Source of the DNA: a virus
Direction: 5' to 3' (one strand)
DNA: 64,000 bases
Virus record (IMG/VR): IMGVR_UViG_3300028029_000006
Span: 184,236 to 248,235 of that record
The notes below the pieces were generated by a model. It searched no databases and had not been told where the DNA came from. It saw nothing but the letters and a program-made list of their open reading frames with translations. The translations under genes were made by a program, and so were the position numbers. Below, piece by piece: positions 2,390 through 38,101 of this stretch. Every line of letters starts with the position of its first letter. Position 1 is the stretch's first letter.

Positions 2390-3176
2390 AAATACATCAA
2401 TCAAAGTTTGTGGAGAAAGTTTTGATACAGGAGTTAGAGTTGTCCTTTGGGATGAACCAGATGGACTTAATTTTTATCCCGCTAGAAAGTTTCATGCAAG
2501 AGATTGGGGTCTTGAAGAAGCAAGAAAAAAAATAAAAGCTTTCTACATCCATCATAGTGTCACATTTACGGCTCACTCTACTTTTCGCGGACTCAAAGCT
2601 CGTGGACTTTCATGCAACCTTATGATTGATGATGACATTGACCCCGAGACCGGAGCAGCCACCATTTACCAAATGTTGGATATAAAAGACGGAGGATGGT
2701 CTCAGGGAGGGGTTCATAATCATAACGGAGCAGGAGTGGAGATATGTTACTACCCCGACTCTTGGAGAAAACCATCTCGTTATTCATCTTACAACAGAAA
2801 ACGTTTTGGAGTACATAAGCATCCAGTTGTTTCAGATACGATTCATGGTCATCACTTTAAAAAATGTTGGGGGCCAACTGCGGCTCAAGTTAAAGCTTGC
2901 AATCATTTAGCCGCAGCTTATTGTTTAGCTTTTCCAGATCTTCCTAGAGCATTTCCTAGAGATGATGATGGCAAATTGATTTCCACAGTAGTACCAATGG
3001 AAAAAAGAGTTGGTTTATTGCATCATTATCATGTTAAACGTGGAAAAGTTGATGCAATGGGATTTCCTACAGATCAATCAGAAAAAGATATTAATGAATT
3101 AGTTAGAAAAGCTGAGTTAGATTCAAATCTTAGACGTGATAATGTTATTGACACTTTAAAAAAATCTGGTGAATAA
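2382..3176 (+). CDS. N-acetylmuramoyl-L-alanine amidase (Amidase_2-like)
   Basis: IHHS, S-x-NLMIDDD, IYQMLD, N..GVEI and HHYHV..KVD Zn-amidase pattern. Confidence 0.75.
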   Translation: MSKNTSIKVCGESFDTGVRVVLWDEPDGLNFYPARKFHARDWGLEEARKKIKAFYIHHSVTFTAHSTFRGLKARGLSCNLMIDDDIDPETGAATIYQMLDIKDGGWSQGGVHNHNGAGVEICYYPDSWRKPSRYSSYNRKRFGVHKHPVVSDTIHGHHFKKCWGPTAAQVKACNHLAAAYCLAFPDLPRAFPRDDDGKLISTVVPMEKRVGLLHHYHVKRGKVDAMGFPTDQSEKDINELVRKAELDSNLRRDNVIDTLKKSGE

Positions 3177-29864: not shown

Positions 29865-29880
29865 TAATTGCTTTTACTTT

Positions 29881-29896
29881 TGGCAAGGTTTTTGCT
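29881..29896 (+). promoter_or_regulatory. sigma54-type promoter candidate 1
   Basis: TGGCAAGGTTTTTGCT = GG-N10-GC, close to TGGCAC-N5-TTGCW. Confidence 0.5.
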
Positions 29897-29935: not shown

Positions 29936-30218
29936 CAAGCCATTGATATCATTAGACAATTCCCCAAGTGCGGCAATCACTCCACATACCGCGACCGATC
30001 TGTCACACTCCAAGTGCTTGATATCATTGGCATGGTGCGACATGTTTGCCGCATGTGACAATCGTTCCACACTATGCGACAATCCTACCGCACCCGTAAA
30101 CCATTGATATCATTGGGATGGTGCGACAACAATGCCGCACCATGGGTAGGGCCCAACTGGCGAGGCGAGGCTAGGCGGTTGGCCCCCATGGTACGGCTCC
30201 AATGATATCAAGCACTTA
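29936..30218. promoter_or_regulatory. array of four IHF consensus sites and six 18-bp dyads (putative enhancer)
   Basis: WATCAANNNNTTR at 29936-48, 30011-23 and 30097-109 (minus) and 30206-18 (plus); dyads start at 29969, 29990, 30036, 30054, 30075 and 30122. Confidence 0.7.
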
Positions 30219-30225
30219 GGCTAGT

Positions 30226-30241
30226 TGGCATGGTGCCTGCA
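30226..30241 (+). promoter_or_regulatory. sigma54-type promoter candidate 2
   Basis: TGGCATGGTGCCTGCA, GG-N10-GC, with an IHF site just upstream. Confidence 0.62.
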
Positions 30242-30279
30242 TTGTCTGTATTCACCGGACACAACGGCCCAACGCCACT

Positions 30280-30295
30280 TGGCACGGTCGGTGCA
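30280..30295 (+). promoter_or_regulatory. sigma54-type promoter candidate 3
   Basis: TGGCACGGTCGGTGCA, GG-N10-GC. Confidence 0.62.
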
Positions 30296-30312
30296 TTGTC
30301 CCAAGTCGAGGT

Positions 30313-30353
30313 CAGTAGGTAGCTGGCAAGTTCGATTCTTGCCCTACTTCCCA
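30313..30353 (+). ncRNA. tRNA minihelix-like element (acceptor + T-arm + CCA)
   Basis: AGTAGG/CCTACT stem, GCAAG-TTCGATT-CTTGC T-arm, ends C-CCA. Confidence 0.55.
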
Positions 30354-31030
30354 AGGGACAATGGTGTTCCACATTGTAACCACAACTCCCACAAGGTAGG
30401 GTCATGCGTTTTATCCAGCTGTACTAGGTGCGGCACCCACTAGGGTTTCAGTTATTCCAAAACAAGTCAAGATCTCACTATTCAACGTGGGATGGTTTCG
30501 CAAGCCATGATGCCGCAAGGTCAAGTTGCCAGAGTTAACACTGTCAATCTCGTAATGGGTTGTCACACTAATACTCTCAAACGTTTTTCTTCCGCTAGTG
30601 CGTAGCCAAAGTGGCCAAACTAGGTTGATGTAATTATCAGCGAAGTTGGAAGCGACTAAGTTTTATACGCTTAGCGTTTGAAGTTTTAGAAAGGTGTTCC
30701 GAACCATACCAACGGCTTGGGTGACTCGCTAGTTCTTTGACAATTGAATCATGCAGTGAGTAGGTTAACCGCCTAAGTTCTAATCTTCCTAAGGGAAGCA
30801 CCAAGAATCAAACGGTTAACATTGGGACCGGTATCGGTAAGTCCCCTACAATATTGTTAGTCACTTCTGTATGATCGATGCGTAGGTTAGTTACCTACAT
30901 TGACTCACACGCTCCACAGTTGGGCCAATAAACGGTTATGATAACCTGGTAGGGTTGTTGTGATTATGGTACGAGTGCAACTCTCGTTTGCGTGTGCTGA
31001 CTCATTCACAATTAAGTGTTCGAGTTTAAA
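30354..31030 (+). ncRNA. long structured leader / putative large ncRNA
   Basis: No credible ORF; nested stems and GCAA loops. Confidence 0.5.
30732..30743 (+). promoter_or_regulatory. rrn-type boxA antitermination element
   Basis: GTTCTTTGACAA matches the boxA consensus; lies between structured domains. Confidence 0.55.
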
Positions 31031-31056
31031 CAACAATTCTAAAGAAAGATAATATC

Positions 31057-31329
31057 ATGGCCCGTACAGCAACAACGATTGACAGTGTCCGTAACTTATT
31101 CAACGAAGTCGCACCTAACTTCGAACAGTTTGATGGTGCAACTCTACTTCCGATGAGTAATAATAAGTGTGCTATTCTCAAAGATGGCAAACTTGAAGAG
31201 TACTCATGTTCTTCATTGAAGGCAAGTTTGGAGTTTATCAAGAATCATCTAATGGTTCCGAAAGTTGAATCTGATTATGATTCATCTGATGTTGCTCCAA
31301 TCTCAAGCCCACTTTCTGCTGTTGGTTGA
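31057..31329 (+). CDS. hypothetical protein, first gene of the plus-strand arm
   Basis: AGAAAG upstream of ATG. Confidence 0.7.
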   Translation: MARTATTIDSVRNLFNEVAPNFEQFDGATLLPMSNNKCAILKDGKLEEYSCSSLKASLEFIKNHLMVPKVESDYDSSDVAPISSPLSAVG

Positions 31330-31338
31330 ATTCTAAAA

Positions 31339-31391
31339 AGGTGAGGTGACATAGGCTCACAATGTAGGTTCGACTCCTACCTCACTTTCCA
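31339..31391 (+). ncRNA. anticodon-less tRNA-like RNA
   Basis: 7-bp acceptor AGGTGAG/CTCACTT, one GG-loop hairpin, T-arm GTAGG-TTCGACT-CCTAC, T-CCA. Confidence 0.65.
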
Positions 31392-31422: not shown

Positions 31423-31644
31423 ATGCCAAAAGAGAACGAGAACGACTACGACACGATCAAGCGCGAAGCGCAATTCAAGGCTGACAAGCATGGCTTGTAC
31501 TACCGCATTGAGAAAAGCATGTTTGGGGAATGGGTGTGCCACGCCGTACCATGGCCAAAGAACCAGCACGGTCGAGATCTTGTTGGGGAGCTAGTTAGTC
31601 CTAGCACGTATGTGGAATCCCACTATGCACGGCCATGGTTGTAA
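31423..31644 (+). CDS. hypothetical protein
   Basis: ORF with RBS-like GAAGG. Confidence 0.55.
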   Translation: MPKENENDYDTIKREAQFKADKHGLYYRIEKSMFGEWVCHAVPWPKNQHGRDLVGELVSPSTYVESHYARPWL

Positions 31645-31930
31645 GTGTTCCACATGTGTCGAATCTTTTGACAATGGTAAACGGTTGTATACAGCTGGTT
31701 GCAATTGCAATCATTGTTGGTGGCCAACGCTGGGGAAGGAATCATTGGACATTACCCAACCCGAGTCGTGTCTTTTTGATAAGGGGAAAGTTCAATGAAA
31801 GAATTGAATATCGAATGGTATATAAACTCTTTACTTAATTCCAACGATGTGGATGACATGTTTGATTCGAATGATTCGGATGACATGTTTGATCAATCAA
31901 TTGATTGCGAACGAGATTGCGAGGTTGTTT

Positions 31931-32403: not shown

Positions 32404-32432
32404 ACAATATTTCGCAGAACGCCATATCATTA

Positions 32433-32493
32433 AAACATAATGGTTGTGTCTACATGTGTGGATGTGCAAGTTCGATTCTTGTAATGTTTTCAA
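32433..32493 (+). ncRNA. anticodon-less tRNA-like RNA, copy A
   Basis: AAACAT/ATGTTT acceptor, AATGGTT loop, hairpin, GCAAG-TTCGATT-CTTGT. Confidence 0.6.
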
Positions 32494-34510: not shown

Positions 34511-34565
34511 AAACATAATGGTTATGCATATATGCATGTAAGTTCGATTCTTGCGATGTTTTCAA
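34511..34565 (+). ncRNA. anticodon-less tRNA-like RNA, copy B
   Basis: Homolog of 32433 with compensatory T-stem GTAAG/CTTGC and a different hairpin. Confidence 0.6.
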
Positions 34566-37772: not shown

Positions 37773-38101
37773 GGGCCTCCGGGTATATAGTTATAAATAT
37801 ATAGATAACTAGCTAAAGAAAAGTTAAACCTAATAAATGAGTTAATCTAAATGAGTGTAAACCATGAATAACAGTCGCGGTCCTCCGAGTTAAATTAATA
37901 TGCATAATTAACCTGGACAAGTTATAAAACTGTCCTCAATGTCTCCTTATGGTGGGAGTTGACGCAACCAAGTTGCGAAATAATATTTAAAGACATGGGC
38001 ATTAGCTGGAGAATATGTTAATGTTCATGAAAATGTTGGTTCATTTTTTATTATAGTAGTAACTGTTGACTTCGGAGGTTCAATTCCTCTGGGAGGCTCA
38101 A
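37773..38101 (+). ncRNA. ~330-nt RNA closed by a tRNA-like acceptor/T-arm (tmRNA-like architecture)
   Basis: GGGCCTCC (37773) pairs with GGAGGCTC (38092-99); T-arm GGAGG-TTCAATT-CCTCT; internal hairpins. Confidence 0.45.

Follow-up and report, generated by a model that had tools for sequence, protein, structure and literature searches.

A candidate long early leader with an rRNA-type boxA and a tRNA-like minihelix behind sigma54-type promoters of a jumbo phage

At the head of the early region of phage T7 and in the nut sites of lambdoid phages, host-polymerase promoters are found together with an untranslated leader, boxA and processing signals. A boxA usually sits 5′ of a structured RNA, not within one. 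Minihelices (an acceptor stem and a T-arm, in the manner of half a tRNA) can be cleaved by RNase P, as is known from work with model substrates. The NusB–S10 antitermination complex of rRNA (rrn) operons does not form in E. coli without boxA, and boxA is sufficient for its formation (PMC13753749). A Myxococcus CRISPR leader carries a boxA that is identical to the rrn boxA, and one case of boxA enhancing termination is also on record (10.64898/2026.07.09.737519). A different kind of system is represented by GOLLD (RF01998), ROOL (RF03087) and the lncRNAs of kayviruses, which are like the stretch of DNA described here in their size range, their phage origin, the tRNAs and tRNA-like elements nearby and their having no known function (PMC12286853, PMC9241854).

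The stretch lies at about 30300–31030 of a 64,000-nt window (the whole piece of DNA that was analysed, i.e., positions 184,236 to 248,235 of IMG/VR record IMGVR_UViG_3300028029_000006), to which all positions without a prefix refer. On balance, it is probable that this is the long 5′ leader of a phage early operon: sigma54-driven, processed, carrying a tRNA mimic and subject to antitermination of the rrn type. Its exact extended boxA is common to rrn operon leaders or spacers of Bdellovibrio, Nitrospina, deltaproteobacteria and Rhizobiales, and, as in rrn operons, an untranslated leader precedes tRNA-like elements and a long transcript. In contrast to an rrn leader, it is borne by a phage, is driven by sigma54 and is followed by small protein genes instead of rRNA; outside boxA, its sequence does not resemble that of rrn leaders. 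In comparison with the T7 early head and the lambdoid nut sites, it has sigma54 and IHF elements instead of sigma70 promoters and a much longer leader. A tRNA minihelix is present instead of the RNase III hairpins of T7, and no boxB, i.e., no short GNRA-like hairpin directly 3′ of boxA, was identified in the folds of the stretch. Unlike GOLLD and ROOL, the stretch has no Rfam match (E up to 10) and no enrichment of GNRA loops, and it continues into an ORF, no terminator having been found.

The source virus record has 409,147 bp at 32% GC and is 96% complete, i.e., it represents a jumbo phage of about 409 kb. The genome encodes terminase, portal, a family C DNA polymerase, a recombinase, 21 tRNAs and two proteins of the sigma70 family. 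Neither an RNA polymerase beta gene nor a gene for NusG or a NusG paralogue was found in the 409 kb, thus early transcription is most likely dependent on host factors. Genes in the window diverge at about 29.7 kb, where the GC skew inverts. Rightwards from there lie IHF-consensus sites with dyads, three sigma54-type elements, the ORF-free stretch and then small plus-strand genes, the run of which extends for tens of kilobases. The stretch is identical in a second assembly (L307), probably from the same sample. From a hydrothermal-vent run, two contigs of 151 nt match the window within 31427–31725 without any difference, which weakly suggests the presence of this phage at the vent; the contigs compared with the region did not cover the stretch itself, which argues neither way.

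The position of the stretch after sigma54 promoters, as claimed in a preliminary description made from the letters alone, was borne out by a motif scan, with sigma54-type −24/−12 elements at 29881, 30226 and 30280. The features are as follows:

29880–29896, plus strand: P1, upstream sigma54-type −24/−12 promoter (motif scan; putative function)
29936–30217, no strand assigned: IHF-consensus sites and repeated dyads (repeats D2, D3, D8, I3 and I4)
30225–30241, plus strand: P2, sigma54-type promoter (motif scan), predicted +1 at about 30252; shares repeat D7 with P3
30279–30295, plus strand: P3, sigma54-type promoter (motif scan), +1 predicted at about 30306 from the −24/−12 spacing
30313–30353, plus strand: tRNA minihelix of 41 nt ending in CCA (motif scan and separate folding)
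30354–30731, plus strand: 5′ untranslated spacer with small hairpins and a poorly defined fold (z +0.2 and −0.6 for its halves)
30732–30749, plus strand: rRNA-operon-type boxA, 12-mer core 30732–30743, rrn-like extension to 30749
30749–31026, plus strand: robust 3′ domain, most pair probabilities at least 0.9 at all spans (z −2.2)
31057–31329, plus strand: first early ORF, 90 aa, an orphan; a called gene on L307
31339–31391, plus strand: second CCA-ending tRNA mimic, after the first ORF (7-bp acceptor, 4-bp hairpin, T-arm)

From its sequence, the region 29936–30217 is a candidate enhancer at which a sigma54 activator of the host may bind, and the same layout of IHF sites and promoter occurs in three other records (L285, L287 and L400). 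A phage-encoded activator was considered as well, namely an AAA+ ATPase (G000:C1:292089-293240, minus strand) with a borderline match to Sigma54_activat (PF00158, E 1e-4); on so marginal a match it was not taken to be one.

About 750 nt, from the predicted +1 near 30306 to the first early gene at 31057, are free of ORFs. The earlier statement that there is no credible ORF agrees with this: the longest frames opening with ATG, GTG or TTG are 72 aa (plus strand, beginning within the promoter) and 55 aa (minus strand). Translation with TAG as Q or TGA as W yielded no frame spanning the stretch and no gene. In the 409 kb there are 13 gaps of at least 300 nt, of which 30444–31025 is one, with the highest GC content (43%). 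That the stretch conceals small or recoded proteins is very improbable. The phage does encode a tRNA with a CUA anticodon (G000:C1:250663-250734; labelled Pyl by ARAGORN; a possible amber suppressor), and TAG read-through opens a stop-free frame of 183 codons at 30108–30659; however, this frame runs across both promoters and the minihelix and requires five read-throughs, and the gene caller puts nothing in the region. The phage genome otherwise reads well with table 11. A purine-rich RBS (about 31042–31049) precedes the first early ORF. The first two early ORFs are orphans, the 90-aa product having no relatives in two protein searches, and the early region turns over fast. Two early genes gave no match in the related records G006, G017 and G018, in a search run without a positive control.

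The most informative element of the stretch is the boxA, which the preliminary description did not contain. The 12-mer has one match in the window where 0.02 are expected, and this is the sole perfect copy in 409 kb. With the 18-mer, a query picked from the window after inspection, 65 of 120 matches in bacterial genomes fell in 16S leaders or 16S–23S spacers. The boxA at 30732–30749 is beyond chance. Within the untranslated leader it stands in sense orientation, with a promoter upstream and a long transcription unit downstream, both read from sequence, and in ensemble folding 30734–30738 of its core is mostly unpaired.

A boxA borne by a phage is in itself ordinary, because the extended box is common in viral contigs, where it gave more than 120 matches; what is unusual here is the length of the leader and its minihelix. 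Among the viral matches listed, 90 of 106 distinct contexts were outside ORFs, a same-strand ORF came next in 60 of 76, and three contigs (L312, L356 and L400) carry a sigma54-like promoter 37–132 nt upstream of boxA, with shorter leaders. Opposite-strand ORFs precede the promoter–boxA unit in L312 and L400, the latter having IHF sites too. Among these viral contigs (L309–L428), the extended box in L334 follows what looks like the end of a tRNA, and that in L416 precedes what looks like the start of a tmRNA.

Two observations on boxA count against the leader reading. Firstly, it is far from both the predicted start (about 425 nt) and the ATG (325 nt), whereas the viral median distance from boxA to ATG is 131 nt and, among the matches listed, 8 of 60 have 325 nt or more. 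Secondly, none of the other clade members searched showed a boxA in a comparable early leader; matches to the boxA pattern in clade genomes were not above a reversed control and were mostly within genes.

The CCA minihelix noted earlier at the start of the stretch was confirmed: folded alone, 30313–30353 forms an acceptor stem and a T-arm (−12.9 kcal/mol). The acceptor stem, of 6 bp with a terminal C1:U72 mismatch, is stacked on a T-arm with a 5-bp stem and a 7-nt loop, and is followed by a discriminator C and an encoded CCA; a 6-nt linker replaces the D and anticodon arms. The minihelix begins 7 nt downstream of the predicted P3 start, its T-arm has exactly the sequence found in the CUA tRNA (at G000 250709), and its presence is beyond chance. 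ARAGORN finds no tRNA or tmRNA in the stretch. In the full-length ensemble, longer-range pairings compete with the minihelix (T-stem p ≤0.11); the predicted loss of this competition in the equilibrium folding of the full transcript counts against the leader reading.

The same plus-strand gene run contains at least five further T-arm elements. Armless or D-less tRNA mimics stand between early genes at 31339–31391, 32432–32491 and 34511–34562 and near 38074 and 51190, and several of them nearly share their T-arm with the CUA tRNA.

The folding of the remainder was calculated as partition functions at three maximum spans. All of the nested helices named in the preliminary description are present as complementary sequences (30578/30675, 30589/30648, 30764/30813, 30824/30841, 30882/30893 and 30906/30990), but not all are credible as pairs. 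The inner CTTCC/GGAAG pair (30589/30648) had p ≤0.06 at all spans and was rejected, and the probability of the helix enclosing it (30578/30680), although its sequence is there, swings between 0.03 and 0.84 with the span. Those in the 3′ domain fared better: helix 30764/30820 and the inner hairpin 30785/30798 had p=1.0, helix 30906/30996 about 0.9 and helix 30824/30845 0.67, and hairpin 30882/30898 had p 0.93–0.99 at spans of up to 300 nt and 0.02 with unlimited span. The domain is laid out as a multibranch stem (30749/30874) enclosing the 30764/30820 hairpin, then hairpin 30882/30898, a three-way junction (30906/30996) with a 13-bp arm, and hairpin 30999/31026. The supposed T-like arm near 31018 does not have the 5-bp stem of a T-arm. 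In the 5′ part, helices shift with the span settings and the folds are no better than those of shuffled sequences; two short-range hairpins (30472/30493 and 30624/30641) are stable. A duplex of −32 kcal/mol closing the 5′ end onto 30900 was dismissed, being within the range of shuffles (P 0.09).

GCAA loops had been cited in support of the plus strand. GNRA/GCAA hairpins number one on the plus strand and two on the minus strand, with a shuffle mean of 1.1, i.e., there is no enrichment and the argument falls; judged by sequence features, the plus strand is supported instead by the orientation of promoters, minihelix, boxA and genes. In separate runs, the z of the whole region was −2.5 and −2.9 on the plus strand and −4.0 and −2.6 on the minus strand. 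For comparison, 32 ordinary 735-nt tiles of the genome gave −1.25 ± 1.36, and three of them were at −2.9 or lower. Perfect stems were not more numerous than in shuffles (P 0.08–0.56). Thus the folding is suggestive and not exceptional, because genome tiles reach a similar z and neither GNRA hairpins nor perfect stems are more frequent than expected by chance.

These figures bear on the proposal that, boxA and minihelix apart, the stretch is a neutral or DNA-level spacer of a first-injected or terminal region (holding an origin, injection or packaging signals, or decayed early genes), with helices that are largely due to chance. In keeping with such a spacer, the two strands have similar folding z values, which some 10% of genome tiles reach, stem counts do not exceed those of shuffles, the stretch adjoins the strand switch and skew inversion, and the early region with its two orphan ORFs turns over fast. 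The proposal is nevertheless improbable: 750 nt of GC-rich DNA (43% versus 32%) have been retained in a compact genome, the helices of the 3′ domain mostly have p of at least 0.9, and the same position in a related phage has retained an RNA that covaries (see below).

To return to the leader, the earlier suggestion of a structured leader gains support from the fact that promoter, minihelix, untranslated spacer, boxA, folded 3′ domain, RBS and first ORF are colinear on the plus strand, and that no terminator-like site was found between promoter and first ORF. The following course of events can be envisaged. The sigma54 holoenzyme of the host would start the early transcript near 30252 or 30306, its activator being an enhancer-binding protein, also of the host, that is looped in by IHF. 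The minihelix would fold first and be excised as a tRNA mimic, by RNase P at its 5′ end and a 3′ nuclease after CCA, which would set the 5′ end of the remaining transcript; tRNA-like punctuation may act alike further down the operon. The boxA would then load NusB–S10 and an antitermination complex of the rrn type, whereby the polymerase could ignore Rho while it transcribes the untranslated leader and then the many small early genes that follow. The folded 3′ domain may stabilise the processed mRNA or determine how the first gene is translated; it may also remain behind as a stable RNA. A pure antitermination leader has no need of 750 nt, and this counts against the leader reading. If the leader reading is true, a giant phage begins its infection using the sigma54, IHF and rRNA antitermination machinery of its host, and armless tRNA mimics punctuate its early transcript. 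No paper describing the combination of sigma54, IHF, rrn boxA and tRNA mimics was found in a literature coverage that was incomplete.

Searches for relatives covered Rfam, GenBank phages, 16 records of the clade and the flanks of the homologs of a neighbouring gene, and in none of them was a true relative of the stretch found. The Rfam check proposed earlier (GOLLD, ROOL, RNase P), extended to OLE and tmRNA, gave no family match at gathering thresholds or with E up to 10; a 37-nt match to CRISPR-DR54 (E 4.7), the only one in the stretch, was attributed to chance. With blastn, the stretch had no match in GenBank phages and chance seeds only in the 16 clade records. The 10-kb flanks of homologs of a 161-aa early gene (L013–L022, L434–L439) had no match by nhmmer or covariance model (CM), and the phage genome itself holds no paralogue. 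Models derived from the window found no homolog in 33 records, nor did the 3′ domain by CM. A two-motif pattern gave no hits in viral contigs, and a promoter-plus-hairpin pattern gave, in metagenomes, just the types of L285 and L287, plus three chance matches.

An RNA that resembles the stretch in other respects was reached through shared architecture, i.e., a sigma54 promoter and a long ORF-free stretch, with further variants from a motif scan. In G006, a genome of 406 kb in which the C-terminal part of the capsid protein is 85% identical to that of the window phage, a sigma54 promoter is followed by about 730 ORF-free bases in capsid orientation, roughly 141 kb from the capsid gene (176 kb in the window's genome). 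G006 and two further viral records thus share a ~730-nt ORF-free stretch behind IHF and sigma54 promoter elements (L286:380-1118, L285:2460-3200 and L287:3112-3850, all minus strand; also L288 and L290–L292). There are three distinct sequences, of two types that are about 80% identical. Of 218 pairs, 21 differ at both positions, and several of these follow one another in runs of four; in a shuffle control of one segment with three rows only, the effect was modest (21/500). This RNA folds at z −3.7 to −4.4 and has no Rfam match, and is a stronger candidate for a non-coding RNA than the window's stretch.

Like the stretch, the related RNA has the promoter architecture, the position, the length and one hairpin tip; unlike the stretch, it covaries and shows neither boxA nor minihelix. 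The 15-nt tip is 506 nt from the promoter in the window and 489–495 nt in the related RNA; its distance to the first ATG is about 270 nt. By nhmmer, this spot is the sole match under E=10 in the 409-kb genome (E=6; 0.015 on 1 kb). Pairwise scores are above those of shuffles (P 0.003–0.03), and the best match of a model, R2, in 77 kb falls inside the related RNA (E 0.08). On the other hand, R1, a covariance model built from the related RNA, gives no match at the window's copy of the shared hairpin, CM tests are negative in both directions, MAFFT leaves the shared motif unaligned, and two weak window matches are not conserved even between L285 and L286. The similarity at sequence level is accordingly best called borderline; the related RNA is treated as an analogue, and its remote homology to the stretch appears rather unlikely.

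It is from this comparison that a second account of the stretch draws its strength, namely that it encodes a discrete, ornate non-coding RNA of about 680–730 nt, cleaved after the minihelix and remotely belonging to the L285/L286/L287 family, with a possible role like that of GOLLD or ROOL, e.g., as RNA scaffold or decoy. The comparable genome position, the covariation and the shared tip speak for such an RNA. It is nonetheless doubtful: apart from the failed model searches and the missing boxA and minihelix of the related RNA, the structure of the window's 5′ half is not above shuffles, GNRA loops are not enriched, boxA would sit inside a structured RNA, against its normal place, and no terminator-like site marks the 3′ end. 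The leader and a stand-alone RNA do not exclude each other, because processing could release a stable RNA. Perhaps a clade of ~400-kb jumbo phages makes an ornate RNA of about 700 nt, of an undescribed class, as its very first sigma54-driven transcript, with the L285/L286/L287 RNA as a sister family and, in the window, a member that has diverged strongly and acquired both an rrn boxA and a processing site in the form of a tRNA mimic; this is offered tentatively and is more likely than not to be wrong. If true, a new class of large phage RNA would be added, to which the covarying relative is the better entry point.

Three minor observations concern these phages more broadly. An 890-nt gap (L436:2678-3570) contains hammerhead-like core motifs near 3060–3160, with no Rfam match to a hammerhead in the gap. 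The capsid-like gene of the window phage (L011:14685-16851; G000 about 36.6–38.8 kb) is apparently split by ORFs resembling homing endonucleases, which suggests introns. In a related phage, many copies of a 15-nt element starting CCCATCGC stand before early genes (L019:4740-6570); these repeats come after a cluster of sigma54 promoters and are possibly a site for a regulator or for antitermination.
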